From the NCBI GenBank assembly GCA_965215275.1, contig OZ244044.1:1856001-1920000 (forward strand): 64,000 nt of DNA, written 5' to 3'. The notes under the pieces are model-generated. The model saw only the letters and a list, made by a program, of their open reading frames with translations, ran no database searches and was not told where the DNA came from. The translations under genes and the position numbers were made by a program. Below, one piece after another: positions 31,165 through 64,000 of this stretch; the stretch's first letter is position 1, and every line of letters begins with the position of its first letter. This DNA comes from Thermodesulfobacteriota bacterium (lineage in GTDB: Bacteria; Desulfobacterota_D; UBA1144; Nemesobacterales; JAJCZQ01).

Positions 31165-33015
31165 ATGAAAAACAACCTCAAGGATTATCTCGATTTAAAA
31201 TTAGAGCATAAAAAGCCACCGCTCTCAATAGAAAAGTATAGTGATAGTATAGAAGAGGTTAATTCATATAATTTGCAAGATATCCAAGAGCCCTGGATAA
31301 GTTTTTTGCTGGTTGTTTATAATGAAGATGAGTTATTATTCAGAGCGTTGAGTTCTATAACATGTGCCAAATCAGGGTCGTATGAAATAGTAGTTGTTGA
31401 TAATGGTCTATCCGAACCAGCTAAAGAGAAGTTACGGTCCTATTCCCTAAAGCATATTGTTATGAATAAAAACGTGGGATGTGGAACGGGAAGGAACATA
31501 GGGAGTTTATACTGCAATGCACCCGTTATTTTTTTTGTTGATGCCGATGGTTATCTTGAAGACGTGGACATAGCGTTTGATAAGGTTCAAGTTCTGATGA
31601 ATGACGCTAAATTAGTGGCAATTAGAGGTAAGGTAAAACAGATCCATACCGGTTTGATTAGAATTGAACCGTGTCATTATGATTTAGGAGATGAAGTTAT
31701 TCCTTGCTGTATAAATGCTGAATGTGTCTCAATGTTCAAGAGGAAGGATTTTATTGAGGTGGGAGGTTTTGAGGATGGTATGGTGGGACACGAGGGTACA
31801 TTTTTGTGTTTTAGAATGGTTGAGTTCTATGGATATGACAAGGATTCTTTTCTTTATGATCCGGAATTAGTTTTATTTCATAATTACTATAATAATTTAA
31901 AACATATATTATCAAAGAAACAGAGGAATAGACATTTATCTTATATATTAACTCTGAAGTACCCACTTATAAAAAATTTTTGTCATTATTATGTAAATAA
32001 TAAGGGTAAGCCAATAAATAAGGGGTATTTAGTAAGGTTTAACCTATTTTTAGACAGGTTAATAAATTACTGGATACGCATGAAGGGTGACAAATATTTG
32101 ATATATATCATGGGACAAAACAATTATAGTTCAAGAAACCTGTCTGTATCCAAGTTCACCGTAGTAATTACCTCTTACAATAAAGGGAAATGGCTGAAGC
32201 AGGCAATTAACTCAGTTCTTAGCCAAACGTTGCAGGATGTGCAACTTATAGTAGTTGATGATTGTTCAGACGACCCTGAAACAATTAAGGTTCTGAACCA
32301 GATTTCAAAGGATGTTCATGTAATAAGACTGGATAAGAACAGAGGAGTTTCAGCAGCTCGTAATGAAGGAATAAGGAATGCAGATTCTGAATATATATGT
32401 TGTCTTGACGGGGATGATTATTTGGAACCGACCTATTTAGAGAAAGCAAGGAACGTGTTTGAAAACTATAAAGATGTTGGAATAGTGGCTTCTTCAATGA
32501 AAAGGTTTGGAGATGTTACCTCAATGTGGAAAATACAAGAAGATGAGACAAGTTTATTTAGAATGTTATGTAGTAATTGTATACCTTCAGCGTCTTGCTT
32601 CAGACGAGAGGTATCCGTTAAAGTGGGGATGTATGATGAAGGATTGAAGAGCCATGAAGATTGGGAGCACTGGATAAATATAGTTAAAGATGGATGGAAG
32701 GTAAAAGTAATACCTGAATATTTAATTAACTATAGAATATATAAAGGTTCAAAGTATGTTAATAACGCCAATAAGGCAAATGTTTATTATTCCTACATCA
32801 TAAATAAGCACAGAAAGTTATATGAAAAACATTGGGTTGAGGTCTTGTCCATAAAGCATCTGCAAACTAGTGATAGGCTAGTAGAAAATAACAGATTACG
32901 AAGTTTCCTGTTATTACGGATTATGTTTTGGATATGGTTTAATGTACTCAAGAGATTTCTCCCTGAAGGTCTGCAGAAGTTAATATACAAATTATTGATG
33001 ATAATTGCTCTATAA
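31165..33015 (+). CDS. Double-domain glycosyltransferase family 2 protein
   Basis: Two GT-A domains (VVVDNG...FVDADG and VVDDCSDD...CLDGDD...HEDW); AT-rich. Confidence 0.92.
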   Translation: MKNNLKDYLDLKLEHKKPPLSIEKYSDSIEEVNSYNLQDIQEPWISFLLVVYNEDELLFRALSSITCAKSGSYEIVVVDNGLSEPAKEKLRSYSLKHIVMNKNVGCGTGRNIGSLYCNAPVIFFVDADGYLEDVDIAFDKVQVLMNDAKLVAIRGKVKQIHTGLIRIEPCHYDLGDEVIPCCINAECVSMFKRKDFIEVGGFEDGMVGHEGTFLCFRMVEFYGYDKDSFLYDPELVLFHNYYNNLKHILSKKQRNRHLSYILTLKYPLIKNFCHYYVNNKGKPINKGYLVRFNLFLDRLINYWIRMKGDKYLIYIMGQNNYSSRNLSVSKFTVVITSYNKGKWLKQAINSVLSQTLQDVQLIVVDDCSDDPETIKVLNQISKDVHVIRLDKNRGVSAARNEGIRNADSEYICCLDGDDYLEPTYLEKARNVFENYKDVGIVASSMKRFGDVTSMWKIQEDETSLFRMLCSNCIPSASCFRREVSVKVGMYDEGLKSHEDWEHWINIVKDGWKVKVIPEYLINYRIYKGSKYVNNANKANVYYSYIINKHRKLYEKHWVEVLSIKHLQTSDRLVENNRLRSFLLLRIMFWIWFNVLKRFLPEGLQKLIYKLLMIIAL

Positions 33016-42057: not shown

Positions 42058-42472
42058 GGGAATTATATAGGAAAGTTGACAAAATTCCATAACTCACTTT
42101 AATCATTAACTTCTTTTATAAAAGGATTTACTTTAGAATCTACTACTAATTTAAACCTTTTTTCAGTTCTTCTTTAATTGGTTTTTTAGGTTGTTTATGC
42201 GGGATCGACCCCATTTGTAAGAACATCTATTGCTTGTTGTTTTTCTTTTTTGCTTTTAATTTTTTCATTATAAAACGAATAACTACTATATATAATTAAG
42301 ACTCCTCCATACTATGTTATCACTACTTAATTCTTCAAAGGTAATAGTTTTTCTTACCATACTGTAAAAAGAGCATCCGACCGGTCTTGTGTTTCTGTTT
42401 TAACAATCATCATGAAAACCTATCTATATACTTCTCAAATTGCTATTTTGTCAATTTTCCTATATAGTTCCC
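42058..42472 (-). mobile_element. MITE-1a: internally deleted IS1595 derivative
   Basis: 28-bp TIRs GGGAAYTATATAGGAAARTTGACAAAAT; interior keeps a decayed transposase C-terminus; paralogous to 44512-44957. Confidence 0.85.
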
Positions 42473-42473
42473 C

Positions 42474-42521
42474 TTATTGAACGTCTGCAAAGATCCAGTT
42501 GAAGTTCTGAGGTATGAATGA
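42474..42521 (+). pseudogene. 3' stub of a lolC/lolE-type permease gene
   Basis: Reads ...KDPVEVLRYE*, the typical LolC/E C-terminus, with a TGATG overlap into lolD. Confidence 0.7.
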
Positions 42522-43201
42522 TGAAAAACGTATTTGAGGTCGATGGTATTTACAAGACCTTTTCAAATAAGAAAAATAAAGTCGAAGTTTTAAAGGGAAT
42601 AACCCTTAATATACGCGATGGTGAAACGTTCGGTATACAGGGAGTATCAGGGGCCGGCAAGAGCACTTTACTGCATATACTGGGAACTTTAGAGAAACCA
42701 ACGGAGGGCAGGGTTCTGTTCGATGGGGTAGACGTCTTTAAGCATGATGACAAAGACCTGTCACGTATCAGGAACGAGAAGATAGGGTTCGTATTTTTGT
42801 ACCCCTATCTTCTTCCGGACCTAAATGCCTTGGAAAATGTTATGTTACACTGTTTGGCGAACGGAATGGAAAATAAAACAGCAAAGGAAAGGGCCTTGGC
42901 CATGTTGGAAAGGGTCGGTTTAGCAAATAAATCAAGCCATAAGCCAAGTGAACTGTCAGGTGGTGAACAGCAAAGAGTTGTAATTGCAAGGTCTGTTGTT
43001 TTAGGTCAAAAAGTAGTGCTTGCAGATGAACCGGTAGGTAACCTGGACTATAAAACAAAGATGAGTATAGTCGACCTCTTTTTAGGATTGAACGAGGAAA
43101 AAGGCATTACGTTCGTGATAATTACCTATAGCTCCAGGATATTTGACAGACTGAGCAGAAGGGCAATACTGTCGGATGGGAAAATAGTCGATGTTAACTA
43201 A
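42521..43201 (+). CDS. lolD: LolD-type ABC ATPase with degenerate Q- and H-loops
   Basis: GVSGAGKST, LSGGEQQRV and LADEP are present, but FVFL replaces FVFQ and ITYS replaces VTH. Confidence 0.85.
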   Translation: MKNVFEVDGIYKTFSNKKNKVEVLKGITLNIRDGETFGIQGVSGAGKSTLLHILGTLEKPTEGRVLFDGVDVFKHDDKDLSRIRNEKIGFVFLYPYLLPDLNALENVMLHCLANGMENKTAKERALAMLERVGLANKSSHKPSELSGGEQQRVVIARSVVLGQKVVLADEPVGNLDYKTKMSIVDLFLGLNEEKGITFVIITYSSRIFDRLSRRAILSDGKIVDVN

Positions 43202-43256
43202 AATTTATAGTGTTATTAAGTTCTTTCTCGCTTTTGTCACTAAAGCATATAATTCC

Positions 43257-43715
43257 TTTCGGATCAGGGGAACGACTGAGAGAATTAGAACAATATATTG
43301 CTAAAGCAAAAGAACAATACAAGGAAGCGACCCATGACTTTTACGGTTATATGAGGAAGCAATTGCAGACTTCGATAAAGTAGTAGAGATCGACCCGCAA
43401 GATATAAACTACTGTTACAGATGGATAGCAAATTCGGACAAGAGAAATAACTGAGAGAGATAGAACAAGATAAAGCCGCTGCAGGTTTAGAGCGTGCCGG
43501 CAGATTGCGGAAAAAAAGATATTTCGAAGAAGTTCGCTTAGTGTATACAGAAAATACTTTATGAACTCCTTAGCAGAGGTAACTGGCTGATCGGAGTATT
43601 AAATCCCGATCTTTTAGTTATGGTAAAAGAGTTCAAATTTTTTCAGACGATATAAACCTTCTGCAATTTGTACTGTATAATAGTCAGTAAAGGATACAAC
43701 TTTCAGATAATAAAC
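43257..43715 (+). pseudogene. 3' relic of a TPR paralogue plus the conserved TPR intergenic spacer
   Basis: Encodes ...EQYKEATHDFYGYMRKQLQTSIK*; the spacer matches the reverse complement of 57527-57865 and 56073-56317. Confidence 0.8.
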
Positions 43716-44556
43716 ATGGACAGATCAAATACCTTACCAGAACCAAGAGATGCAAAAGGATACTTTGAACGCGGAAAAGACTTTTTGAACAAAGGAGAGA
43801 TTCTAAAAGCCATTGATGATCTAGATGAGGCAGTCCACCTTAATCCCCAATTTGCAATAGCTTACTATCATAGAGGGCTTGCCAAAAATGAACTTGGACA
43901 ATATAAGAAAGCGATCGAGGACTTTGATAAAGCAATAGGGAGCAATTTCCCCCCCCCCTCGAGATACAGAAATCTACTACCGCAGAGGGCTTGCCAAATA
44001 TAAACTTGGGCAATACAGAGAAGCAATTAAGGAGTTTGACAAACTAATAGAGGTCTATCCGCAATTAATAAGAAGTTACCATCTCAGAGGGATTTTCAAA
44101 AAAGCACTTGGTCAACACAATGAAGCACTTAAAGACTTTGGCAAGGTCATAGAGATTAATCCGAAATTCACAAGAGACTACTATCATAAAGGGCTTGTCA
44201 AAAATGAACTTGGACAATACAAGGAAGCGGTCAAGTACTTTGACAAAACAATAAAGTTCTCACGATTTCCAAGAACTTGCCATCAAAGAGGGCGTGCCAA
44301 ATACAAACTTGGTCAATACAATGAAGCACTTAAAGATCTTGACGAAGCAATAGAGATTAATCCACAATTAACAGAAACATACTATGACAGAGGGTGTGCC
44401 AAATATAAACTTGGTCAATACAGAGAAGCGACCCATGACTTTTATCGTTATATGAGGAAGCGATTTTGCAAGATACAAAATCTTGCTATTACAAGGGTGA
44501 TAGCAAATTTGGGGAATTATATAGGAAAGTTGACAAAATCCCATAACTCACTTTAA
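43716..44556 (+). CDS. TPR protein A, frameshifted at C10 (43949-43958); 279 aa if the tract is C9
   Basis: MDRSNTLPEPRDAKGYFERG start; after the tract the +1 frame stays open (RDTEIYYRRGLAKYKLGQY...) to TAA 44556, which lies inside MITE-1b. Confidence 0.85.
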
Positions 44557-44957
44557 ATAGTTAACTTCTTTTATAAAAGGATTTACTTTAGAGGTTACTA
44601 CTGATTTAAACCTCTTATTCAGTTCTTCTTTAGGTGGTTTTTTTAAGTCGTTTGTGCGGGATTAGTTCCATTTTTAAAAACATCATTGATGCTTTATCTA
44701 TTGTTTGTTGTTTTTCTTTTTTTTGCTTTTAATTTTTTCATTATAAAACAAATAACTATTAAATATGATCAAGACTCCTCCATACTGTATTATCATTACT
44801 TAATTCTTCAAAGATAATAATTTTTCTTAACATACTGCTAAAAAGAGCATCCAATCGGTCTTGTGTGTCTGTTTTAACAACCATCATTTAACTTGAACGA
44901 AAATTCACCTATATACTTCTCAAATTGCTATTTTGTCAACTTTTCTATATAATTCCC
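44512..44957 (-). mobile_element. MITE-1b: internally deleted IS1595 derivative
   Basis: TIRs as in MITE-1a; reverse strand reads QFEKYIGEFSFKLNDG.../KTDTQDRLDALFSSMLRKIIIFEEL, an IS1595 transposase C-terminus. Confidence 0.85.
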
Positions 44958-45341: not shown

Positions 45342-46585
45342 ATGGACAGATCAAATACCTTATCAGAACCAAAGGATGCAAAAGGATACTTTGAACGCGG
45401 AAACGCGTTTTTGGACAAAGGAGAAGTCTTAAAAGCTATTGATGATCTGGATGAGGCGATTCATCTCAATCCCCAATTTGCAAGAGCTTACTTTAATAGA
45501 GGGCTTGCCAAAAATGAACTTGGACGATACAAGGAATCGATTGAGGATTTTTATAAAGCAATAGGGACCAATCCCCCCCCCTCCCCCATCAAGATGCAGG
45601 GTTTTACTATTGTAGAGCTGAATATTGTACAGGGCGAGAGCCTGTCAAAAACGAACCTAGGGAAACGATCAAAGACCTTGACAAAGTAATAGAGGTCTAT
45701 CCCCAATTTGCAAGAGCTTACCAACGTAGAGGGTTTGCCAATTATAAACTTGGGCAATACAGAGAGGCGATCAAGGACTTTGACAAAGTAATAGAGGTCT
45801 ATCCCCAATTTGCAAGTGCTTACTATCGTAGAGGACTTGCAAATTATGAACTTAGGCAATACAGAGAGGCGATCAAGGACTTTGGCAAAGCAATAGAGAT
45901 CTATCCCTATCCGCACCTTATAAGCCTTAACTATCAAAGAGGACTTACCAAAAATGAATTTGGGCAATACGAGAAAGCAACCAAAGACTTTGATGAGTCA
46001 AAATCCTACTATGACAGAGGGTGTGCTAAATGCAGGCTTGGGCAATACAAGAAAGCGATCGAATATTTTGACAAATCAATAGAGACCAACCCGAAATTAT
46101 CAGAAGACTACTTTACGAAAAAGTATGCCAAAAACAGACTTAAATACTACAAGTACATAATTACAGAAAATTACTATAACAGAGGACTTGCTAAAGTCAG
46201 GCTTATGCAATATAAAGAAGCGGTCGAAGACTTTGACAAGGCAATAGAGATCAATCCGCAATTAACAATAGCTTATTATAACAGAGGACTTGCTAAAGTC
46301 AGGCTTATGCAATATAAAGAAGCGGTCGAAGACTTTGACAAGGCAATAGAAATCAAACCGCAATTGGTAATAGCTTACAATGACAGAGGGTCTGCCAAAT
46401 ACGAACTTGGACAATATAAAGAAGCGGTCGAAGACTTTGACAAAGCAATAGAGATCAATCCGCAATTAACAATAGCTTACAATAACAGAGGACTTGCTAA
46501 AGTCAGACTTAGACAATACAAAGAAGCGACCCATGACTTTTACGGTTATATGAGGAAGCGACTGCAGACTTTGATAAAATGGTAG
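45342..46585 (+). CDS. TPR protein B, frameshifted at C9-T-C5 (45573-45587); 414 aa with one extra C
   Basis: Hand translation shows no stop in the downstream frame from 45587 into ORF 46205-46585; near-identical 102-bp TPR units at about 46178-46500. Confidence 0.87.
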
Positions 46586-51146: not shown

Positions 51147-53795
51147 ATGCAAACAATGACTGGAAGTGAAATAAGAACCCTTTTTTTGGATTATTTTAAA
51201 AGCAAGGGACATATGGAAGTAAGTAGTTCTTCTTTAATTCCAAAGGACGACCCAACGCTTCTTTTTGTCAACGCGGGTATGGTGCAATTTAAAAATGTGT
51301 TCCTTGGAACGGAGAAAAGAGATTATAAACGTGCAGTTTCATCTCAAAAATGCGTGCGTGCAGGTGGAAAGCATAATGACCTTGACAACGTGGGATACAC
51401 TTCCCGTCATCACACATTTTTTGAAATGCTGGGCAATTTTTCATTTGGAGATTATTTTAAGAAAGAGGTCATTGAGTTTGGATGGGAACTTATTACAAGT
51501 GTATATGGGATAGCGGAAGATAAGCTATGGGTAACTGTATTTAAAGAAGACGATGAAGCATACGACCTTTGGAAGAACCATATAGGCATCAGTGACGGCA
51601 GACTGGTAAAGATGGGGGAGAGTGACAATTTCTGGTCAATGGCTGATACCGGACCGTGCGGTCCCTGCTCTGAGATCATTGTTGATCAAGGTGAGAGATT
51701 TGGCTGCGGAAAAAAAGATTGTAAAGTCGGATGTGATTGTGACAGATATCTGGAAATATGGAACTTGGTATTTATGCAGTTTTATAGAGATGATGCTGGC
51801 AATTTAACCAGACTTCCTAATCCGAGCATTGACACGGGGATGGGACTAGAGAGAATAGCGGCTGTGCTTCAGGCCGTAAAAAGCAATTACGAGACCGATC
51901 TTCTTCTTGAGATTATAGAAGATATCTCCGCGTTTTGTGGAACTGAGTACAAAAGAGGAACCAGTGAGAGTGATATTTCTATGAGGGTTATTGCAGATCA
52001 CTCAAGAGCGGTGAATTTTCTGATTTCCGATGGAGTATTTCCCTCTAACGAGGGTAGAGGATATGTTCTCAGACGAATACTGCGCAGAGCTGTAAGGCAT
52101 GCAAAAATGCTCGGGGTTGACAAACCGTTTCTTTACAAAACACTACCCAGCGTAAACAGGATATTCGGAGATGTCTATCCTGAACTTATAAAACGAGCGG
52201 ATTTTGTTTCACGAGTTGTTAGAACTGAAGAAGAGAGATTTCTGGAGACCATTGACCGTGGGCTTGAGCTTCTTGAGACTGAGGTAGCTGAACTTCAGGA
52301 AAGCAGTATCTTATCTGGAAAAGTAGCATTCAGGCTATACGACACTTACGGCTTTCCCTATGATCTGACAGAGGATATTACAAAAAGCAAAGGAATAAAA
52401 ATTGACTCTGCTGAGTTTAACCTGGCAATGAAGAAGCAGCGTGAACAATCAAGACAATCATTGAGGAAGACCGATGAGGGATTTACTGCCGGTTTATACG
52501 GAGACTTTGTCGCAGGAGGTTTGAGTGTTGATTTCACGGGCTATGAGCAGTTGGAGGGTCAGGCCCTGATTATGATGATAATAAATAACAATCAAGCTGT
52601 CGATAGTGCTTCTGAAGGAGACCTAGTGGAATTGATAACCGACTCAACGCCGTTTTATGGCGAATCCGGAGGACAGATAGGAGATAAAGGCAGGATAGAG
52701 TCCGGCAGGTTCAAGGGTGAAGTAGTTGACACGAAAAAACCGTTTACAGATCTTATAGTTCATAAAGTTAAGATAAAGAGAGGCACAGTATGGGTCGGTG
52801 ATAGGGTGAGTCTTATAGTGGACAAGGATTTCAGATCGGGAGTAAGTGCTCATCACACCTCCACGCATATACTTCACGCCACTCTTAAGGAAATACTTGG
52901 TGACCATGTAAACCAGGCAGGGTCGCTCGTAACCCCAGATAGACTGCGTTTTGATTTCAGCCATTATTCAGGGATAGAAAGTAAGGATTTAAGAAAGATA
53001 GAAGAGTTGATGAACGAGAGAGTGAGAACAGATGATGCCGTTGAAGTTCGTAGTAATATTCCATACGATGAGGCTATAAAGGATGGAGCCACGGCGATTT
53101 TTGAGGAAAAATATGGCGACAAGGTAAGAATTGTATCCATTGGAGATTATAGTAAGGAGCTTTGTGGTGGCACGCATTTATGCAGTTCAGGGGAGTCGGG
53201 ATTTATAAAGGTGATTAGTGAGGCGGCATCTTCAGCTGGAGTTAGGCGAATTGAAGCTGTAGCATCTGAATCTGCCGTAAAACTTTTCCATTACTACAAT
53301 AAAATAATTGAGAATGTAAGGTCTGAATTACAAGTTCCACATTCGCAGCTGATAAAGGGACTGAAAATGGTTGTTGATGAGAATGAGAGTCTGGTAAAGA
53401 AGTTGAAGAAATTTAAAGACCGTACTTTTTACAACGAGGTGGAAAGTTTTATAAAAAATGTTAAAAAAGTCAATGGTATAAAACTGCTCATCCAGGATAT
53501 AGAAGGTGCATCCGCGACGGATTTGAGAACCGTCTGGGACAGTGTTAAGCCAAAGATCTGTTCTGGTGTAACGGTCCTTGCGAGCAAAAATTCCGAGAAA
53601 GTTTTCCTGCTGGTTGGTGTTACAGAGGACCTTCTGGAAAAATATCACGCTGGTAATATTGTCAGGGAATTATCACGGATCGTTGGGGGGAAAGGAGGTG
53701 GAAAACCTGACCTTGCACAAGGTGGGGGAAGTATTACTTGTAAAATGAACGAAGCATTGGCGGCCGCTGGGGAAATAATAGAGGGAACATTTTAG
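51147..53795 (+). CDS. alaS: Alanine--tRNA ligase
   Basis: NAGMVQFK, HHTFFEMLGNFSFGDYFK, DTGMGLER, HTSTH...ELCGGTH and GGKGGGK motifs. Confidence 0.99.
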   Translation: MQTMTGSEIRTLFLDYFKSKGHMEVSSSSLIPKDDPTLLFVNAGMVQFKNVFLGTEKRDYKRAVSSQKCVRAGGKHNDLDNVGYTSRHHTFFEMLGNFSFGDYFKKEVIEFGWELITSVYGIAEDKLWVTVFKEDDEAYDLWKNHIGISDGRLVKMGESDNFWSMADTGPCGPCSEIIVDQGERFGCGKKDCKVGCDCDRYLEIWNLVFMQFYRDDAGNLTRLPNPSIDTGMGLERIAAVLQAVKSNYETDLLLEIIEDISAFCGTEYKRGTSESDISMRVIADHSRAVNFLISDGVFPSNEGRGYVLRRILRRAVRHAKMLGVDKPFLYKTLPSVNRIFGDVYPELIKRADFVSRVVRTEEERFLETIDRGLELLETEVAELQESSILSGKVAFRLYDTYGFPYDLTEDITKSKGIKIDSAEFNLAMKKQREQSRQSLRKTDEGFTAGLYGDFVAGGLSVDFTGYEQLEGQALIMMIINNNQAVDSASEGDLVELITDSTPFYGESGGQIGDKGRIESGRFKGEVVDTKKPFTDLIVHKVKIKRGTVWVGDRVSLIVDKDFRSGVSAHHTSTHILHATLKEILGDHVNQAGSLVTPDRLRFDFSHYSGIESKDLRKIEELMNERVRTDDAVEVRSNIPYDEAIKDGATAIFEEKYGDKVRIVSIGDYSKELCGGTHLCSSGESGFIKVISEAASSAGVRRIEAVASESAVKLFHYYNKIIENVRSELQVPHSQLIKGLKMVVDENESLVKKLKKFKDRTFYNEVESFIKNVKKVNGIKLLIQDIEGASATDLRTVWDSVKPKICSGVTVLASKNSEKVFLLVGVTEDLLEKYHAGNIVRELSRIVGGKGGGKPDLAQGGGSITCKMNEALAAAGEIIEGTF

Positions 53796-53837
53796 GCAAG
53801 ATATGGCGGAATGCTCAGTAAGTCCGAACAATCCCTG

Positions 53838-54740
53838 TTATAGGCTAACGTCTTTTATCCCTTGTTTACTTAAAACATCTTTAACTTTTTTTAAAGCTGC
53901 GATTTTAATTTGCCGTACTCGTTCGCGCGATATACCGTATCTCTTACCAATTTCCTCAAGTGTCAATGGATTATCGCTGAGAACATTATGTTTAATCACG
54001 TATTTTTCTCTTTTCTTTAGTGGCTTGAGTATTTCGTTGATATTTTCTCTGATAGCTGATTCAATCTGATTTTTGGCAATTAAATCTTCCTGATTATATT
54101 TTTCATCTTTCAGATAGTTTATAAAACTGGTTTGCTGGCCGTCTCCTATTTTGGCATCAAGGGAAAGGTCTTTATGGGTCATCCTCTGATCCATTTTTAC
54201 TACTTCTTCTACCTTTACCCCGAGTTGTTTTGCAATCTTTGAATAATCATCATCATTTATTACATTTGTTTCCTTACCAAGCGTGTTCTTAGTTGATCTT
54301 AACTTATAAAATAACTTTCGCTGTGCTTGATTTGTTCCTAATTTGACCAAGCTCCATGATTGTATAAGAAAATTATGTATATATGCTCTGATCCACCATA
54401 CTGCGTAGGAGATCAGTTTATATCCCTTTGTCGGATCAAATCCTTTTACGGCTTGCATGAGCCCTATGTTCCCTTCTTGTATTATGTCCATAATATTTAC
54501 GCCGTAGTTCTTGTACTCATGAGCAATTTTTACAACGAACTTGAGGTTGCAAGAGACAAGTTTTCTGGCGGCTTCAAGATCGCCTTCTGTCTTGTATCTC
54601 ATAGCTAACTCATATTCTTCTTTTCTGCTCAGAATTGGGTTGTTACTTATATCGGCTATGTATCTTTCAAGTGAATTAGTAGTTGTTGGAAGATTTGCTG
54701 AATAACTTTTTGTTTCTTCTTTTTCCCTGCTTTTCATCAT
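53838..54740 (-). CDS. rpoH: RNA polymerase sigma-32 factor
   Basis: Region 2 QEGNIGLMQAV..FDP, RpoH box QRKLFYKLR, region 4 SRERVRQI. Confidence 0.92.
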   Translation of the reverse strand: MMKSREKEETKSYSANLPTTTNSLERYIADISNNPILSRKEEYELAMRYKTEGDLEAARKLVSCNLKFVVKIAHEYKNYGVNIMDIIQEGNIGLMQAVKGFDPTKGYKLISYAVWWIRAYIHNFLIQSWSLVKLGTNQAQRKLFYKLRSTKNTLGKETNVINDDDYSKIAKQLGVKVEEVVKMDQRMTHKDLSLDAKIGDGQQTSFINYLKDEKYNQEDLIAKNQIESAIRENINEILKPLKKREKYVIKHNVLSDNPLTLEEIGKRYGISRERVRQIKIAALKKVKDVLSKQGIKDVSL

Positions 54741-54803
54741 GATGAATTTTAGATTCTTATCATAATCGTTTGGGAATTATATACAATAGTGACGAAGCCT
54801 GGA

Positions 54804-54992
54804 TTATTTCTTGTTTTTTGAACGTTCAGCAATGTGTTTCTTTACACCCTTCTTTTTAACATTGACAGGCTGGAGGATAGCTTTTGCTAACTTTTGCGGA
54901 GTTGTATAAATAGCAAACGGATGCTCTTTCTCTTCTTCTGTTGGTTCATAACTGCCTGGTAAGATCTCTGTTGTTTTTTTCTTATTCGTCAT
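54804..54992 (-). CDS. 62-aa basic IS1595 accessory peptide
   Basis: Intact ORF between the transposase and the right TIR; identical to 62093-62281. Confidence 0.65.
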   Translation of the reverse strand: MTNKKKTTEILPGSYEPTEEEKEHPFAIYTTPQKLAKAILQPVNVKKKGVKKHIAERSKNKK

Positions 54993-55046
54993 TGTAAGTT
55001 TATTTTATTTTTTTGGTCTGTTTTTTATCGTATAACATTATTCATC

Positions 55047-55959
55047 TTACCTTATCAGTTCTTTATAAGGCAAGATTTTTCCATACATTGCCTTTGCTAT
55101 TGTTCCCATCTGATCTTTCGTATCCAGTCTTCTTATATTATGCCTTCCCGCAAACTCATTTACATAACGATTTAAATGCTTTTTACTCATTCTGTGGAAT
55201 GTGCAGTTATATCCTCTTTTTAACATTGCCCAGAATGATACCACTCCGTTTACATATGCCTGCTCTTTAACATATTCCCTTACACTATGATTCACGCTTT
55301 CATGGTCATAAGGCAGCCCTGTATAGCTTTTATGATCATCGGTATATATTTTTACTCCCCGACCGACCTTCTTTACTATAAAAACCCTGTATTTCCTCTT
55401 TACTCCGTTCACCAACAAGTTGTGCTATCACTCTGTTTGTCTCTCCGTTCTTCATTCCTGTAACAATTGACTTCCCACCAGGCCCTCGTGTATGACTACG
55501 CTTGTCCTTATGTTTATTTCTCTCCTTTCCACCTGTAAACACTTTCAGTTCTTCTCTGTTCCATGCCTCTCTGATCCGATGCGATAAATGCCATGCTGTT
55601 CTCTGGGTAATATCCAGATCTCAATGCAGTTTCATACTTGATACTCCCTTTAATGACGTGGTAAATAGATATATAGCTACTGCCCAAACCTGATACTTGA
55701 TATTAGAGGACTGCATAACTGTCCTGATACTTACACTAAACCATTTTGCACATCCTTTTTCCCTGAACCTGTACGACATGGTCTTATGACCTATTCCAGT
55801 TTGAACGTTTCTTGTCCCACAATACGGACAAACGGGTTCCTTTCCCCACCTCTGTTCGGAAAACCATTTCTCTGCAACGGCATCGTCAGGAAATTTCTTG
55901 AATAAATTAACTAACGATATCCCTTTCCTGTATGATTTCCCATGTGCTTTGTTTGACAT
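55047..55959 (-). pseudogene. IS1595 transposase pseudogene
   Basis: Zn ribbon CPYCG; TGA after MKLH; the VExDETY segment is missing; frameshift before IYTDD. Confidence 0.9.
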
Positions 55960-56072
55960 ATAACTTCCTCCCAATTATTTAACTTTCTTACCTCTAATAC
56001 TGACAAAACTTTAGCTTTGTCAACTGTTTATTTGGAGACTTCGTCACTATTGCATATAATCCCCATTTTTAT

Positions 56073-56470
56073 ATAATTAAAAAGTCGGGCTTTTTAATCC
56101 TCTAATCAACCAGCTACTTCTGCTACGGAGTTCGTAAATGTTCTCCGTATACATTAAATAAACTTCTCAGAAATCTCTTTTTTCAGCAATCTGTCGGCAC
56201 GCTCTAAACCTGCAATGGCTTTACCTTGTTCTAGTTCTCTCAGTCGTTCTCCCAATCCGAATTTTCTATTCCCTCTGTAACAGTAGGTTTCTACATCTAC
56301 ATCTTGCAGGTCGGTCTCTACCCTTTTATCAAAGCCTGCAATCGCTTCCTCATATAACTGTAAAAGTCCTGGGTCGCTTCTTTGTATTGTCTAAGTCTGG
56401 CTTTGGCAAGTCCTCTGTTATAATAAGTTTTTGCATCTCGCGGATCTATCTCTATTGCTTTGTCATAGTC
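56073..56470. repeat. Direct repeat of TPR 3' end plus spacer (partner 57621-58018)
   Basis: Offset 1548 bp; about 200 nt from 56221 look identical to the sequence from 57769. Confidence 0.9.
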
Positions 56471-57526
56471 CTTAATCGCTTCCGTGTATTGACCAAGTCC
56501 GCCTTTGGTATTTCCTCTGTTATTGTAAGTTTCTGCAATCGCTTCCTTGTATTGATTAAAGTTTTTTTCGGCAAAAAATCTGTTGTTAAAGTAATTTCCT
56601 GCTAATTGAGGATCAAGTTCTGTGGTTTTGTCAAAGTCTTTAATTGCTTCTCTGTATCGTCTAATGTAGGTTTTGGCAAGTCCTCTGTTATAGTAAAGGT
56701 TTGCAATCGCTTTCTTGTATCTACCAAGGTCTTTTTTGGCAAACTTGCTGTTAAAGTAATCTCCTGCGAATTGCAAGTCGGTCTCTATTGCTTTGTCAAA
56801 GTCTTCGACCGCTTCCGCATATTGACCAAGTTCATGTTTGGCAAGCCCTCTATTATAGCAAACTCTTATAAACTGTGGATAGACATCTATTGCTTTGTCA
56901 AAGTCTTCGACCGCTTCCGCATACTGACCAAGTTCATGTTTGGCAAGCCCTCTATTATAGCAAGGTTTTGCAAATCGCGGGTCGATCTCTATTGCTTTGT
57001 CAAAGTCCTTAATTGCTTCCTTGTATTGACCAAGTCTGTTTCTGGCAAGCCCTCTGTTATGGTAATATCTTGCAAATTTCGGATGGACTTCTATTGCTCT
57101 GTCAAAGTCCTTAATTGCTTCTCTGAATTGCCCAAGCCTAAAATTACCAAGCCCTCTACTGTAGTAGAGTTCTGTATATTGTGGGGGGAGAGATTTAGTC
57201 CCTACTGCTTTGTAAAAGTCCTTAATCGCTTCCTTGTATTGACCAAGTTTGTTTCTAGTAAACCCTCTATTATAGTAAGCTCTTACGAATTGCGGGTCGA
57301 TCTCTATTGCTTTGTTAAAATCCTTGACCGCTTCCGCATACTGACCAAGCCTGTTTCTGGCAAGCCCTCTGTTATGGTAAGCTCTTGCAAATTGGGGATC
57401 AAGATGGATCGCCTCATCTAGATCATAAACAGCTTTTACGACCTCTCCTTTGTTCAAAAAGTCGTTTCCGCGTTCAAAGTATCCTTTTGCATCCTTTGGT
57501 TCTAATAATGTATTTGATTTACCCAT
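56318..57526 (-). CDS. TPR protein D (402 aa), in frame through a short C6 tract
   Basis: 34-aa repeats YxNRGLAxxxLGQYxEAxxDFxKAIExxP; G6 on the + strand at 57183-57188. Confidence 0.93.
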   Translation of the reverse strand: MGKSNTLLEPKDAKGYFERGNDFLNKGEVVKAVYDLDEAIHLDPQFARAYHNRGLARNRLGQYAEAVKDFNKAIEIDPQFVRAYYNRGFTRNKLGQYKEAIKDFYKAVGTKSLPPQYTELYYSRGLGNFRLGQFREAIKDFDRAIEVHPKFARYYHNRGLARNRLGQYKEAIKDFDKAIEIDPRFAKPCYNRGLAKHELGQYAEAVEDFDKAIDVYPQFIRVCYNRGLAKHELGQYAEAVEDFDKAIETDLQFAGDYFNSKFAKKDLGRYKKAIANLYYNRGLAKTYIRRYREAIKDFDKTTELDPQLAGNYFNNRFFAEKNFNQYKEAIAETYNNRGNTKGGLGQYTEAIKDYDKAIEIDPRDAKTYYNRGLAKARLRQYKEATQDFYSYMRKRLQALIKG

Positions 57527-57865
57527 GTTTATTATCAGAAAGTTGGATTCTTTACCAACTACTATACAGTAACAATTGCAGAAGGTTTATATAGTCTGAA
57601 AAAATTTGAACTCTTTTACCATAATTAAAAAATCGGGCTTTTTGATACTTCAATCAGCCAGTTACCTCTGCTACGGAGTTCGTAAACGTTCTCCGTATAC
57701 ATTAAACAAACTTCTTATAAATCTCTTTTTTCAGCAATCTGTCGGCACGCTCTAAACCTGCAATGGTTTTACCTTGTTCTAGTTCTCTCAGTCGTTCTCC
57801 CAATCCGAATTTTCTATTCCCTCTGTAACAGTAGGTTTCTACATCTACATCTTGCAGGTCGGTCT

Positions 57866-60800
57866 CTACCCTTTTATCAAAGCCTGCAATCGCTTCCTCA
57901 TATAACTGTAAAAGTCCTGGGTCGCTTCTTTGTATTGTCTAAGTCTGGCTTTGGCAAGTCCTCTGTTAAAATAAGTTTTTGCATCTCGCGGATATATCTC
58001 TATTGCTTTGTCATAGTCCTTGATCGCTTCTTTATATTGCATAAGCCTGACTTTGGCAAGCCCTCTGTTATTGTAAGTTTCTGCAATCGCTTCCTTGTAT
58101 TTACCAAGGTCTTTTTTGGCAAACTTGTTGTTAAAGTAATCTCCTGCGAATTGCAGGTTGATCTCTATTGCTTTGGCAAAGTCTTTAATTGCTTCTCTGT
58201 ATCGCCTAATGTAGGTTTTGGCAAGTCCTCTGTTATAGTAAGCTTCTGCAATCGCTTTCTTGTATTTACCAAGGTCTTTTTTGGCAAACTTGTTGTTAAA
58301 GTAATCTCCTGCGAATTGCAGGTTGGTCTCTATTGCTTTGTCAAAATCCCTGATCGCTTCCGCATATTGACCAAGTTCATGTTTGGCAAGCCCTCTATTA
58401 TAGCAAACTCTTATAAACTGTGGATAGACATCTATTGCTTTGTCAAAATCCTTGATTGCTTCCGCATATTGACCAAGCTTATGTTTGGCAAGCCCTCTGT
58501 TATAGTAAGTTTTTGCAAATCGTGGGCTGATCTCTATGTCTTTATCAAAATCCTTGATCGCTTCCGTGTATTGACCAAGGCTGTTTTTAACACGTCCTCT
58601 GTTATAGTAAGCTCTCGCAAATTTCGGATAGATATCTACTACTTTGTCAAAGTCCTTGACTGCTTCCTCATACTGACCAAGTTTAACTTTACCAACCCCT
58701 CTGCTGTAGTAAAGTTCTGTATATTGGTGGGGGGGGGGGTATTGGTCCTTATTGCTTTGTAAAAATCTTGGGTCGCTTCCTTGTATTGACAAAGTTTGTT
58801 TCTAGTAAGCCCTCTGTTATAGTAAGCTCTTACGAATTGCGGGTCGATTTCTATTGCTTTGTTAAAATCCCTGACCGCTTCCGCATACTGCCCAAGCCTT
58901 TTTCTGGCAAGCCCTCTGTTATAGTAAGCTCTTACGAATTGCGGGTCGATTTCTATTGCTTTGTTAAAATCCCTGACCGCTTCCCCATACTGCCCAAGCC
59001 TAAAATTACCAAGCCCTCTGTTATAGTAATTTTCTACAATTGCTTTCTGGTATTGCCCAAGCCTTTTTCTGGCAAGCCCTCTGTTATAGTAAGCTCTTGC
59101 AAATTGCGGGTCGATTTCTATGGTTTTGTCAAAATCCCTGACCGCTTCCGCATATTGACCAATCCTGTTTCTGGCAAGCCCTCTGTTATAATAAGCTCTT
59201 ACGAATTGCGGAGACATCTCTATAGCTTTGTTAAAATCCTTGACCGCTTGCGCATATTGACCAATCCTGTTTCTGGCAAGCCCTCTGCTGTAGTGGAGTT
59301 CTATTTCTTGTGAGAGGTGAAATTTGCTCCCTATTGCTTTGTCAAACTCCTTAATTGCTTCCTTATATTGACCAAATTTGTTTTTGGTAAGTCCTCTTTC
59401 ATAACAAATCCAATAGATACGTTCTGCAAATCCCGGATTGAGTTTTATTGCTTTATTAAGATCCTCAATTGCTTCCTCATATTGACCAAGGCTGCTTTTG
59501 GCAAGCCACCTGTTATAATAAACGCAAGGATAGAATATATCCTCAAATTGGGGATTGATCTGTATTGCTTTGTCAAAATCCTTGATCGCTTCCTTGTATT
59601 GTTCTTTTGCCTTAACAGTATCTTGTTCTAATCTTCTCAGTTGTTCCCCTAGTCCTAATTTGCTATCCCCTCTGTCATAGTAGGATTTTGCATCTTGTGG
59701 ATTGATCCTTATTGCTTCGTCAAAATCTTTAATCGCTTCCTCGTATTGCTCAGATTTTAATTTGGTATTTCCTCTGCTATAGTAACTTTCTGCATTTTGC
59801 GGACCGATCTCTATCACTTTATCAAAGTCCTTGATCGCTTGTTGGTAGCATCCAAAGTTGTATTTTGTAATTCCACTGCTGTAGTAGACTTCTGCATTTT
59901 GCGGACCGATCTCTGCCACTTTATCAAAGTCTTCAATAGCTTCTTCTAAATTTTCATCCCAGTTCTCAACCTCCTGCTTACATGATCCAAACAAAGCTCT
60001 GGCAAGTCCTCTATTATAGTAGGCTTCTTCATCTTGTGGGTTTATCTCTATTGCTTTGCTAAAGTCTTTGATCGCTTCCTCATATTGACCAAATAAAATT
60101 CTGACACGCCCTCTGTTACAACGGGATTCCGTGTCTTGAGGAGCCACCGTTATTAATTCGTCAAAATCTTCGATCACTTCTCCGTGTAACTCAAGCAAGT
60201 TCTTGGTAACCTTTCTACCAGCGTGGGCAAACAGATATTTCGGGTCGACTTCTATAACTTTGTCAAAATCCTCAATCGCTTCTTTGAGTCTCCCAAGGCT
60301 GCCTTTGGCACGTCCTCTTTCATAATAATAGTGAAAATCCACAAATTGTGGTTTGTTTTTTATGACTTTATCAAAGTCCTTGACCGCTTCTTTGTATTGC
60401 CCAAGTTCGTTTCTAGCAAGCCCTCTGTTATAGTAAGCGCCTATTAATTGCGGATTGCTCCCTATCGCTTTGTTAAAGTCCTTAACCGCTTCTCTGTATT
60501 GTTTAATGTAGGTTTTGGCAAGTCCCCTGCGATTCCAAGACTCTGCATCTTTCGGGTTGATCTCTATGGCTTTGTTAAAATCCTCAATTGCTTCTTTACA
60601 TTGCAAAAGTTGGGTTTTAGCAAATCCTCTGTCAGTGTAGTTTTTTGCATCTTTCGGGTTGATCTCTATGGCTTTGTTAAAATATTCAATTGCTTTATCG
60701 TATTGCTCAAGTTTGACCGTGGCAATCCCTCTGTCAGTATATGCTCTTGCAAATTGGGGATCAAGATGGATCGCCTCATCTAGATCATAAACAGCTTTTA

Positions 60801-60888
60801 CGACCTCTCCTTTGTTCAAAAAGTCGTTTCCGCGTTCAAAGTATCCTTTTGCATCCTCTGGTTCTGATAAGGTATTTGATCTGCCCAT
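57866..60888 (-). CDS. TPR protein C, frameshifted at C11 (G11 at 58729-58739); 749 aa as read, 1007 aa with C12
   Basis: ORFs 58639-60888 and 57866-58792 overlap at the tract; the TPR register resumes as HQYTELYYSRG. Confidence 0.9.
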
Positions 60889-61125
60889 GTTCTCCGGAAG
60901 TTTGACTCTTTACCACCTAATACAAGTTTCAGGTCACCGTTAGAGTCATATTATCCCAATACAGGATGAATAGCTGAAAGAAACTTACCTAGATTACTCT
61001 GTATATACATTTAATGCATTGGGGATTATATACAATAGTGACGAAGTCTCCAAATAAACAGTTGACAAAGCTAAAGTTTTGTCAGTATTAGAGGTAAGAA
61101 AGTTAAATAATTGGGAGGAAGTTAT

Positions 61126-62038
61126 ATGTCAAACAAAGCACATGGGAAATCATACAGGAAAGGGATATCGTTAGTTAATTTATTCAAGAAATTTCCTGAC
61201 GATGCCGTTGCAGAGAAATGGTTTTCCGAACAGAGGTGGGGAAAGGAACCCGTTTGTCCGTATTGTGGGACAAGAAACGTTCAAACTGGAATAGGTCATA
61301 AGACCATGTCGTACAGGTTCAGGGAAAAAGGATGTGCAAAATGGTTTAGTGTAAGTATCAGGACAGTTATGCAGTCCTCTAATATCAAGTATCAGGTTTG
61401 GGCAGTAGCTATATATCTATTTACCACGTCATTAAAGGGAGTATCAAGTATGAAACTGCATTGAGATCTGGATATTACCCAGAGAACAGCATGGCATTTA
61501 TCGCATCGGATCAGAGAGGCATGGAACAGAGAAGAACTGAAAGTGTTTACAGGTGGAAAGGAGAGAAATAAACATAAGGACAAGCGTAGTCATACACGAG
61601 GGCCTGGTGGGAAGTCAATTGTTACAGGAATGAAGAACGGAGAGACAAACAGAGTGATAGCACAACTTGTTGGTGAACGGAGTAAAGAGGAAATACAGGG
61701 TTTTTATAGTAAAGAAGGTCGGTCGGGGAGTAAAAATATATACCGATGATCATAAAAGCTATACAGGGCTGCCTTATGACCATGAAAGCGTGAATCATAG
61801 TGTAAGGGAATATGTTAAAGAGCAGGCATATGTAAACGGAGTGGTATCATTCTGGGCAATGTTAAAAAGAGGATATAACTGCACATTCCACAGAATGAGT
61901 AAAAAGCATTTAAATCGTTATGTAAATGAGTTTGCGGGAAGGCATAATATAAGAAGACTGGATACGAAAGATCAGATGGGAACAATAGCAAAGGCAATGT
62001 ATGGAAAAATCTTGCCTTATAAAGAACTGATAAGGTAA
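61126..62038 (+). pseudogene. IS1595 transposase pseudogene
   Basis: Same lesions as copy 1: TGA at 61462-61464, missing DETY segment, frameshift. Confidence 0.9.
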
Positions 62039-62092
62039 GATGAATAATGTTATACGATAAAAAACAGACCAAAAAAATAAAATAAACTTACA

Positions 62093-62281
62093 ATGACGAA
62101 TAAGAAAAAAACAACAGAGATCTTACCAGGCAGTTATGAACCAACAGAAGAAGAGAAAGAGCATCCGTTTGCTATTTATACAACTCCGCAAAAGTTAGCA
62201 AAAGCTATCCTCCAGCCTGTCAATGTTAAAAAGAAGGGTGTAAAGAAACACATTGCTGAACGTTCAAAAAACAAGAAATAA
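62093..62281 (+). CDS. 62-aa basic IS1595 accessory peptide
   Basis: MTNKKK...PFAIYTTPQKLAKAILQPVNVKKK... Confidence 0.65.
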   Translation: MTNKKKTTEILPGSYEPTEEEKEHPFAIYTTPQKLAKAILQPVNVKKKGVKKHIAERSKNKK

Positions 62282-62517
62282 TCCAGGCTTCGTCACTATT
62301 GTATATAATTCCCAAACGATTAATACTTGTCTAGTGTAATCTTTAAAGTATAACACCAGATAATTGTTTATGAAAATTATGTATTTTTGTCCACATAAAA
62401 GTTTTATTTGATGAGAAAAACCCATAAACTTGATGGGCATGCTTGTCCTCAAATCAACTATCAAAGTTTCTTGACTGACTACTTTTTAACATTTAAACTA
62501 ATCCACTTTGACGCAAG

Positions 62518-62593
62518 TCCGGCGTAGCTCAGTTGGCAGAGCGGATGACTGTTAATCATTAGGTCGCAGGTTCGAACCCTGCCGCCGGAGCCA
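62518..62593 (+). tRNA. tRNA-Asn (GTT)
   Basis: TCCGGCGTAGCTCAGTTGGCAGAGC...CTGTTAA...GTTCGAACCC...GCCA. Confidence 0.97.
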
Positions 62594-62716
62594 GTATATT
62601 CAATTTTGTAGCAAACATGACTTTTATAGTACTGGTGGCAAGATTGTGATAAGCATTTTAGTGTAAGAACCAACACATTATTATCTGAGAGCAGGATACC
62701 CCTTCATAAATGGCTA

Positions 62717-63397
62717 ATGGTTGTATACTTGCTGAATACTGATCTGAAAGGAGTATCCAGTTGTAAACTGGGTAGGGATATAGGAGTAACGCAAACGACC
62801 GCCTGGTATTTAGGACATAGAATAAGAAAGGCGTTTGAAGAGCAGTCTGACGATCCATTACTGTCTCCGGTAGAGATGGATGAGACGTATGTAGGAGGAC
62901 TGGAAAAGAACAAACACGCAAGTAAGAAGACAAAAGGGACACAAGGTAAAAGTACCAAGACCAAGACAGCAGTAGTGGGAATAAAATCAAGAGTAGATAA
63001 GAAAGTAAAAGCAAAGGTAACAGAAACTGTAAAAAGAGAAGAACTACAAAGTATGATAAAAGAAACAGTTAGAGATGGATCAACGATCTATACAGATGAG
63101 AATTTGGGATATAGGGGACTGAACAAGAAGGGATATAAGCACGAGAGGGTAAATCATAGTTCAGGAGAGTATATAAAAGGTCAAGCCCATACCAATGGGA
63201 TGGAAAGTTTCTGGTCTATGTTAAAAAGAGGACATAAAGGAGTGTATCACAAGATGTCTAAGAAACACCTGCAGCGTTATGTAGATGAGTATGCAGGCAG
63301 GCACAATAACAGAGCATTAGCAACAATGGATCAGATTGAAAAAGTGATAAAAGGATTGTCAGGTAAGCGTCTTCAATACAAAGAGTTGATCAGTTAA
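62717..63397 (+). pseudogene. IS1595 transposase lacking the N-terminal Zn ribbon, catalytic core intact
   Basis: VEMDETYVGG, IYTDE, HTNGMESFWSMLKRG and KHLQRYVDE motifs; the frame extends upstream (DCDKHFSVRTNT) without a normal start. Confidence 0.85.
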
Positions 63398-63398
63398 A

Positions 63399-63566
63399 AT
63401 GGCAAGATCAGCAGGTAGAAAACAAAAGATAATCCCTCATATACCAGGGACTTTAGAAGAAACAACAAGAGCAGTTTTATCTCCTAATTTTCAATTTATT
63501 CAGAAACAGAAACAAAAAAATATTAATCAAAAAACAAAAAGTAAAAAATCTAATAAATCTAAATAG
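63399..63566 (+). CDS. 55-aa basic IS1595 accessory peptide
   Basis: MARSAGRKQKIIPHIPGTLEETTRAVLSPNFQFIQKQKQKNINQKTKSKKSNKSK; starts 1 nt after the transposase stop. Confidence 0.65.
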   Translation: MARSAGRKQKIIPHIPGTLEETTRAVLSPNFQFIQKQKQKNINQKTKSKKSNKSK

Positions 63567-64000
63567 TTATATTATCTTCGGTACTTAACTATATAATCCC
63601 CTAAATTAGTGTATAAAGTGTTGAAAGAGAATTACAGAGAGACGGGGAAATATACACAAGACACATAAGCGAGTATGATTATAAAAAAACAGAGCAGTTA
63701 GGGATTGAATGATATTCCGTTTGTTTACTAAAGTATATAATTCCCATTTAAAAAGACTATTTCCCAGAGCGTATGACTGGCTACTTAGACACAAAAACTA
63801 TTAATTAGAGATAAAGATGAATTTGATTCTAATAAGTGTTATAGCTTTGGTAGAGAAGTGTCTATAGTTAAAGGATTTTTGAGAAAATATTGATTTCTTG
63901 TGTGAATCTTAAACCAAATTTTCAATATTGTGTGGATACGATTCTCTGTTTGATGGTGGATACTACATAAAAACCAATTCCAAGTATCAATGTAAACACT

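Follow-up and report, generated by a model that had tools for sequence, protein, structure and literature searches.

We analyzed a 64,000-nucleotide stretch of the genome of a Thermodesulfobacteriota bacterium (GCA_965215275.1, contig OZ244044.1, positions 1,856,001 to 1,920,000), referred to here as the window, in which two insertion sequence (IS) copies of the IS1595 family and two tetratricopeptide repeat (TPR) genes lie between rpoH, the gene of the heat-shock sigma factor, and tRNA-Asn. The genome is a single 1.99-Mb contig; positions with the prefix G000 are whole-genome coordinates and positions without a prefix are those of the window. A first-pass annotation of this DNA had described two inverted 1293-bp copies around about 4.96 kb holding TPR C and TPR D, with one differing base in the left terminal inverted repeat (TIR), and our data bear this out. 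Both copies are 1,293 bp long and enclose 4,956 bp, and the sole difference between these arms is at 56053/61032, position 12 of the left (inner) TIR. The whole block, referred to here as the cassette, comprises 7,542 bp with the IS right ends facing outward and the left ends inward (Table 1). Each copy has 26-bp TIRs that start with GG and differ from one another by 1-2 mismatches, while both outer ends of the cassette are one identical 26-bp sequence. A 1.3-kb repeat at 99.9% identity is far beyond chance, and the inverted repeat continues perfectly for 9 bp past the outer ends, so that its arms span 54763-56065 / 61020-62322.

Table 1. Features of the cassette and its flanks, in window coordinates
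Feature	Position	Strand	Basis
rpoH (sigma-32), intact, 300 aa; insertion in its 5' leader	53838..54740	-	PRK06596 324.9 bits (cut-off 241); TIGR02392 322.4, just below 323.1 (NCBIfam)
Left target copy AATCGTTT, reverse complement of the 8-bp target; 6/8 as direct repeat	54764..54771	+	
Left dead IS1595 copy; right-end TIR 54772-54797 outside, left-end TIR 56039-56064 inside	54772..56064	-	
62-aa open reading frame (ORF) within left IS; retained in siblings	54804..54992	-	
Transposase pseudogene, left copy; nonsense codon 55621-55623, 30-bp deletion at 55541, +1 frameshift	55047..55959	-	
TPR C, 402 aa, in frame; C6 at the family tract position	56318..57526	-	
TPR D 3' part, out of frame; 286 open codons past the tract	57866..58728	-	
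C11 run shifting the TPR D frame; candidate slipped-strand switch	58729..58739	-	
TPR D, 749-aa ORF, of which 716 aa precede the tract	58639..60888	-	
Right dead IS1595 copy; left-end TIR 61021-61046 inside, right-end TIR 62288-62313 outside	61021..62313	+	
Promoter-like site in IS left end, outward, toward TPR D; TGGAGA-16-TATAAT, 10/12	61025..61052	-	Consensus match; position by symmetry from match at 56033-56060 in left copy
Transposase pseudogene, right copy	61126..62038	+	
62-aa ORF, right copy	62093..62281	+	
Right target copy AAACGATT; 7/8 against the empty-site target	62314..62321	+	
Predicted native rpoH promoter, TG-n-TATACT, now 7.6 kb from rpoH	62347..62376	-	
tRNA-Asn(GTT), ancestral divergent neighbor of rpoH; promoter-like site 62471-62499 still attached	62518..62593	+	

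Comparison of the 20 best rpoH loci from 31 genomes, one of them the genome studied here, indicates that the block is an insertion, since tRNA-Asn adjoins rpoH in 15 of the 19 relatives' loci; a cut-off piece of it lies at the contig end in a 16th, from the same genus, and three have none. These relatives are too distant for the target to be read from them (closest RpoH 83%). The RpoH matches from MAGs under various labels include one named Candidatus Dadabacteria, at 57% identity, which makes a Dadabacteria-like lineage likely. We found an empty allele in sequencing run X14, in a relative approximately 96% identical. A 5,714-bp contig of this run aligns to 53700-54765, from which it departs by 46 substitutions and one gap; of the 30 letters that follow, 24 agree with 62316-62345 in an ungapped comparison by eye. 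This site consists of the left flank, a single 8-mer AAACGATC (AAACGATT at 62314-62321 in the window) and the right flank; it contains no TPR genes, and the target lies 23 nt upstream of the rpoH start. The occupied allele is therefore the longer one, by the 7,542-bp block and a further 8 bp exactly. The usual target duplication of IS1595 elements is 8 bp (PMC8101967, PMC5704250). It is also the local norm, as 10 of 31 facing end pairs in this genome have a perfect 8-bp direct repeat and one has a 9-bp repeat. The separate target-site duplications that would have counted against the first-pass annotation are absent, direct matches around the single copies being 4/8 and 5/8, and the empty rpoH/tRNA-Asn site that it had proposed to seek in relatives is present in X14. 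Because a block and exactly 8 bp were gained and neither IS copy has its own duplication, both outer ends would have entered one target, and the X14 contig makes it likely that the cassette entered the rpoH leader as a unit.

The footprint of this insertion is unusual. At 54764-54771, the left target copy reads as the target does on the opposite strand; since the target is near-palindromic (6/8), the two forms differ at only two of eight bases. It is unlikely that two point mutations arose and that each happened to perfect the inverted repeat, given that the 1,293-bp arm gathered just one. Among the 31 facing end pairs, a perfect inverted flank occurs at the cassette only; genome-wide, an equal degree of self-complementarity is found in 21 of 130 IS1595-type end flanks and identical flanks in 8 of 8,385 end pairs. 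Most likely, the right arm served as the template from which the left target copy was rewritten in one direction, either through recombination with conversion or through template switching. Both processes are known for inverted repeats (PMC5941160), conversion between IS inverted repeats is documented (PMC3004938), and recA and ruvC are present in the genome. The converted left flank hints at interaction between the arms. A missing direct repeat does not exclude unit transposition, and in the cassette its sequence was apparently overwritten with that of the opposite arm.

We found that both transposases of the cassette are pseudogenes. Their broken pieces match PF12762 (DDE_Tnp_IS1595; E 1.7e-19 and 8.3e-5), with the zinc ribbon PF12760 (E 2.2e-5, 24.8 bits) just below its cut-off of 25.4, while an intact sibling transposase scores 132 bits with PF12762 and 170 bits with NF033547 (cut-off 75). 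Scored against the intact sibling, the two copies share five lesions: a TGA at codon 113 (61462-61464; 55621-55623 in the left copy); a 30-bp deletion between short direct repeats after 61544 (55541), by which FTGSVEADET and the first catalytic Asp are lost; one surplus T in the run 61701-61705, which gives a +1 frameshift; C65F in the zinc ribbon; and E to V at the third acidic residue (61844-61846). The acidic residues were assigned from the ISApl4 motif printed in PMC12561309 and from general knowledge of the family. The nonsense codon, first Asp loss, frameshift and E to V change leave no intact catalytic triad. The first-pass annotation had thus been right that both copies carry the same nonsense codon, loss of the catalytic segment and frameshift, while its spelling of that segment as DETY does not stand, as the siblings read DETF.

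A third dead copy, identical to the right one, lies 4 kb outside the window (G000:1923981-1925273; L001:7981-9273), and the genome also contains six full-length IS1595 siblings with 313-aa frames as well as some fragments. The three dead copies differ from each other by 0-1 substitutions and from each of the six siblings by 104-125. Because of these few mutual differences and the common lesions, the dead copies would have been made, or made alike, after the damage, which fits the earlier proposal that the element was duplicated after inactivation. A long neutral decay before copying is unsupported, since the private changes (25 synonymous, 27 non-synonymous) are like those of the siblings (22 and 21). 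Target duplications of 8/8, 9/9 and 7/8 were found for siblings and none for any of the three dead copies taken singly. Five pieces that equal the dead copy in sequence have contig depths of 1,195-1,615, versus 607.5 on rpoH, which fits several copies and gives no copy number. In related genomes, IS DNA gave short weak matches alone, in two of four family genomes, and the 62-aa IS ORF matched no Pfam or NCBIfam family (its best Atlas score, 0.90 to low-recognition clusters, is a weak lead). The third dead copy lies at the joint of a tandem glycosyltransferase duplication, where its right 8-mer is unlike the paralogous unit, which is otherwise identical over 523 bp.

Since both cassette transposases are dead, a helper would be needed. 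The intact transposase with the same 26-bp TIR that the first-pass annotation had suggested looking for has a candidate at G000:540452-541769, the only one of the six full-length siblings that retains all four zinc-ribbon Cys together with D, D and E. Both of its ends are identical to the outer 26-bp ends of the cassette, and it has a perfect 8-bp target duplication. We regard it as a candidate helper that is presumably active; together with the single 8-bp target of the empty site, it backs the view that the cassette could move as a non-autonomous unit. The four Cys are present in five of the six siblings. The third acidic residue has been replaced by V or G with the 313-aa frame open in five of the six (G000:396221, 1098282, 1970729, 1973424 and 1982938).

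Taken as a whole, our data favor, with fair though not high probability, the reading that a 7,542-bp block of dead, right-end-out IS1595 arms and a TPR pair entered a single 8-bp target as one unit, a non-autonomous composite transposon, with the help of an intact sibling. Starting from the observed anatomy, lesions, empty site and 8-bp net gain, we infer the following steps. An already dead IS isoform would have been copied at least three times in trans, and two dead copies would have come to flank the TPR pair at a donor site. Use of both outer right ends together would then have produced a direct 8-bp duplication, and the near-palindromic target would have lengthened the 1.3-kb inverted repeat, after which arm recombination or template switching may have altered two bases of the left copy to the right-arm form. 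As a result, rpoH would be cut from its own promoter and rely on IS-derived transcription.

Several observations weigh against this reading. The outer direct duplication is 6/8 only, so that the classic footprint is missing, with 8/8 as an inverted repeat. The third dead copy has no duplication (2/8), and the 8-mer on its right side is unexplained. No recent copy of the cargo was found in the genome (best 82% over 1.6 kb), nor was a donor scar, for which two patterns were searched with matches at known paralogue sites alone. The empty site comes from one contig of one run with 30 loose letters visible. Eight of 16 listed sequencing runs were compared; X6 and X7 gave no empty site among the loose ends listed, apart from 21 of these, X11-X13 gave nothing at the joint, and a 21-mer empty-site probe of JGI metagenomes gave one match, by chance in an unrelated gene. 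The contigs examined, which are short-read contigs, span neither an IS copy nor the cassette, and the two right-hand junctions lie outside their cover.

The closest rival keeps the same unit insertion and holds that the inverted target copy was made during it: in filling of the 8-nt gaps, the 3' end of the left flank would have copied the single-stranded target at the other junction and run into the identical right-end repeat. The altered stretch is exactly the 8-bp target, the outside base (T at 54763, A at 62322) gives a 1-bp priming match, both outer ends share one 26-bp sequence, and the arms are still one inner base apart, so homogenization is incomplete, all of which suits such a switch. 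Later conversion, however, requires recorded processes alone (PMC3004938, PMC5941160), the pattern occurs in none of the 30 other facing pairs (though nearly all of these are left-right pairs), and the literature searched, which left most subscription papers and the main IS1595 reviews outside it, yielded nothing on IS elements that leave inverted target duplications, nor any composite whose two transposases are both inactive. We consider a switch at insertion unlikely, while the two routes lead to the same product and are not told apart here. At a similarly low probability we place the broader proposal that right-right IS1595 composites leave an inverted target copy by junction template switching during insertion and that dead IS1595 ends are a general driving force by which phase-variable TPR genes are spread and rewired in this lineage, with rpoH rewired here as well; if right-right composites did leave inverted copies, searches that rely on direct repeats would overlook such elements. 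Somewhat less probable still is a two-step origin, in which a single IS sat at the target and recombination or replication then copied the IS and its 8-bp right flank in inverted form, bringing the TPR segment in between. Such an origin would account for the same right flank on both copies, and a 3-bp TAA match is present at the left joint, but it requires an extra illegitimate joint and a source of the cargo, and the inner 8-mers ATTTTTAT and AATGCATT are unlike, where two left ends inserting into one circle would predict a match.

We also asked whether the cassette could be a working inversion switch for TPR expression, as it has 1.3-kb inverted arms 5 kb apart and a converted flank in a genome with recA and ruvC, and as inversions are described between the IS50 copies of Tn5 (PMC3004938) and between IS1595-family copies (PMC12561309). 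Because both arms are the same, however, a flipped cargo keeps identical IS ends on both sides: TPR D lies behind the same IS left end in either orientation, and no promoter-gene or coding joint changes. The cargo consists of TPR genes only, and the C11 run is the likelier switch within it. Among the short-read contigs examined, no second orientation was seen. Inversion of the cargo is possible and would alter little, and a working switch is improbable. Even less probable is an assembly artefact, even though near-identical repeats are prone to mis-joins and no contig examined spans the block. A 7,449-bp contig of run X1, which may represent the source sample, covers the rpoH-IS joint without a difference and ends at 54792, 30 bases after the 9-bp flank begins; a 31-mer graph would presumably break there if the flank and TIR had two different neighbors. 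Two further studies contributed contigs (X5 and X7) that read through the inner left joint and agree with it at every base, and the flanks rejoin in the X14 empty site. Finally, IS1595-type ends are common (130 genome-wide) and lie near TPR genes, which might suggest two independent IS insertions beside a resident TPR locus. This has next to no probability, as the copies show neither their own duplications (4/8, 5/8) nor the crossed pattern that an inversion would leave, and it is contradicted by the empty site, which has no TPR genes. A search for separate or crossed duplications of the two copies found none. A direct-repeat composite of the right copy and the third copy was likewise rejected (1/8 match), as was intramolecular replicative inversion, which needs the left outer flank to equal the right inner flank (observed 5/8).

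Returning to the non-autonomous composite transposon, and taking the definition of composite transposons from PMC12561309, the cassette has one IS twice in opposite orientation around cargo, as has Tn5 with its IS50 copies, and on the evidence of one contig the whole unit occupies one target. Neither flanking IS encodes a working transposase. In Tn5, one IS50 copy is active, whereas both cassette transposases are dead, the left target copy is inverted, and the cargo consists of TPR genes rather than resistance genes. Tn5 is alike in that its arms can recombine to give inversions (PMC3004938). We therefore file the cassette as a non-autonomous variant, given its lack of an own transposase and its rewritten duplication; apart from one unusual footprint, elements of this kind, composite transposons with inverted arms, are already known. 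We take the cassette IS to be probably ISNwi1-like by its GGGAATTAT ends, on resemblance to that group. With the IS1595 family (PF12762, PF12760, NF033547) it shares the zinc ribbon, the DDE domain, 26-bp TIRs starting with GG and 8-bp A/T-rich duplications (PMC8101967), and it differs in that its copies are pseudogenes of an isoform approximately 8% from the siblings with an extra 62-aa ORF.

Two cases bounded by ISApl4, also of the IS1595 family, are described in Actinobacillus pleuropneumoniae, namely Tn7560 and a cpxRA inversion (PMC12561309). In these cases, as here, IS1595-family copies bound cargo and 8-bp repeats are absent at the copies involved; an inversion between two close copies is described there (PMC12561309). 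Tn7560 differs by direct, intact copies and a resistance cargo, and the cpxRA case inverts resident genes, whereas the cassette has inverted, dead copies and a cargo foreign to the site. The ISWpi1 elements of Wolbachia provide an example of TIR-TIR recombination with gene conversion (PMC3004938), in which a mismatch between inverted arms was likewise erased one way; the converted base there lies inside the 23-bp TIR of one IS and inversion was seen, while in the cassette the conversion lies in the target copy outside the 1.3-kb arms and no inversion was seen. The cassette offers a clean example from nature, backed by an empty allele, in which both IS copies that make up a composite transposon were dead beforehand. 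It does not overturn the established view of composite transposons, and it hints at how a large TPR gene family spreads in a little-studied genome of approximately 2 Mb.

The insertion may also have changed the control of rpoH. Past the right target copy, after 25 nt, comes an extended -10 element on the minus strand (TG-n-TATACT, 62347-62355), and the same 9-mer precedes rpoH in a same-genus genome (G001), which makes it likely that the cassette separated rpoH from its predicted promoter. Of 18 relatives' loci inspected by eye, 9 have TATACT or TATAAT no more than 70 nt from where the match starts (L010 was excluded, its extract being misplaced). Read-through from the IS likely serves rpoH now, because the left IS is transcribed toward rpoH and the TATAAT of its right end has no scored -35. 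We considered whether the IS right end supplies rpoH with an outward sigma-70 promoter and rejected this, as TATAAT is present but the promoter scan gave no site. Outward promoter-like sites in the region are not above chance (3 found versus 4.5 expected from shuffles). This reading predicts a testable change in the control of the heat-shock sigma factor.

TPR families generally act in protein binding, and the TPR proteins here have no hydrophobic leader by eye. Cargo DNA gave weak TPR matches alone, in 8 of 20 relatives. Homopolymer runs are a general basis of phase variation at contingency loci. TPR D itself is split by a frameshift at its C11 run, and 8 of 13 TPR paralogues in this genome have a C9-C11 run in the coding region that sets the frame, four of the eight being out of frame, although run length may also reflect sequencing error. 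The C11 run, a candidate switch at which no switching was observed, appears a more plausible control on the cargo than inversion. C9-C11 runs stand at the same motif in paralogues at 43949-43958, 45573-45581 and 58729-58739, all three out of frame. Genome-wide, there are 133 C/G runs of at least 9, six of length 8 and none of length 7 (48 expected), a pattern that very strongly marks contingency loci. The genome has mutS and mutL, which speaks against loss of mismatch repair as the cause of the tracts or of the conversion.

A 12-letter end motif identified the 130 IS1595-type ends, versus 4-6 in three shuffles, and 8 of 13 TPR paralogues start within 1.5 kb of such an end, versus 14% of random positions. 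This proximity is overstated, because the cassette genes supply two of the eight, block duplication accounts for several paralogues, and ends and paralogues alike concentrate in variable regions. A second composite at G000:17470-21955 contains an ABC ATPase and two TPR genes between two non-coding IS1595-type elements of 415-446 bp in direct orientation, with a perfect 8-bp duplication. A related transposase-free composite at 42058-44957, likewise with an ABC ATPase and TPR genes between direct elements of this size, is 84-93% identical to it in the main blocks and has other flanks (6/8). Judged from these two composites, transposase-free IS1595 ends likely moved TPR genes more than once in this genome. 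Another inverted pair of the same IS family, G000:1970729-1974742, has its right ends out, 1.37 kb between arms that are 59 substitutions apart and no outer duplication (5/8), and probably represents independent insertions.

Further repeated families lie in and around the window. A truncated IS1595 of another subfamily lies directly past tRNA-Asn (62640-63602) and is 89-91% identical to G000:436372-437331 and 1980607-1981569. Glycosyltransferase paralogues (31165-33015 and 64101-67656, the latter L001:4101-7656) have near-identical 5' halves at several sites and mosaic 3' halves, and an 802-aa glycosyltransferase (L001:9455-11863) has a long tandem KHKDLEV heptad run near its C-terminus. In a large subtilase (PF00082) family (L026:2225-3655 and paralogues), a C run of at least 8 lies directly upstream in 36 of 57 N-terminal tblastn matches, many of which have two C runs approximately 70 bp apart.

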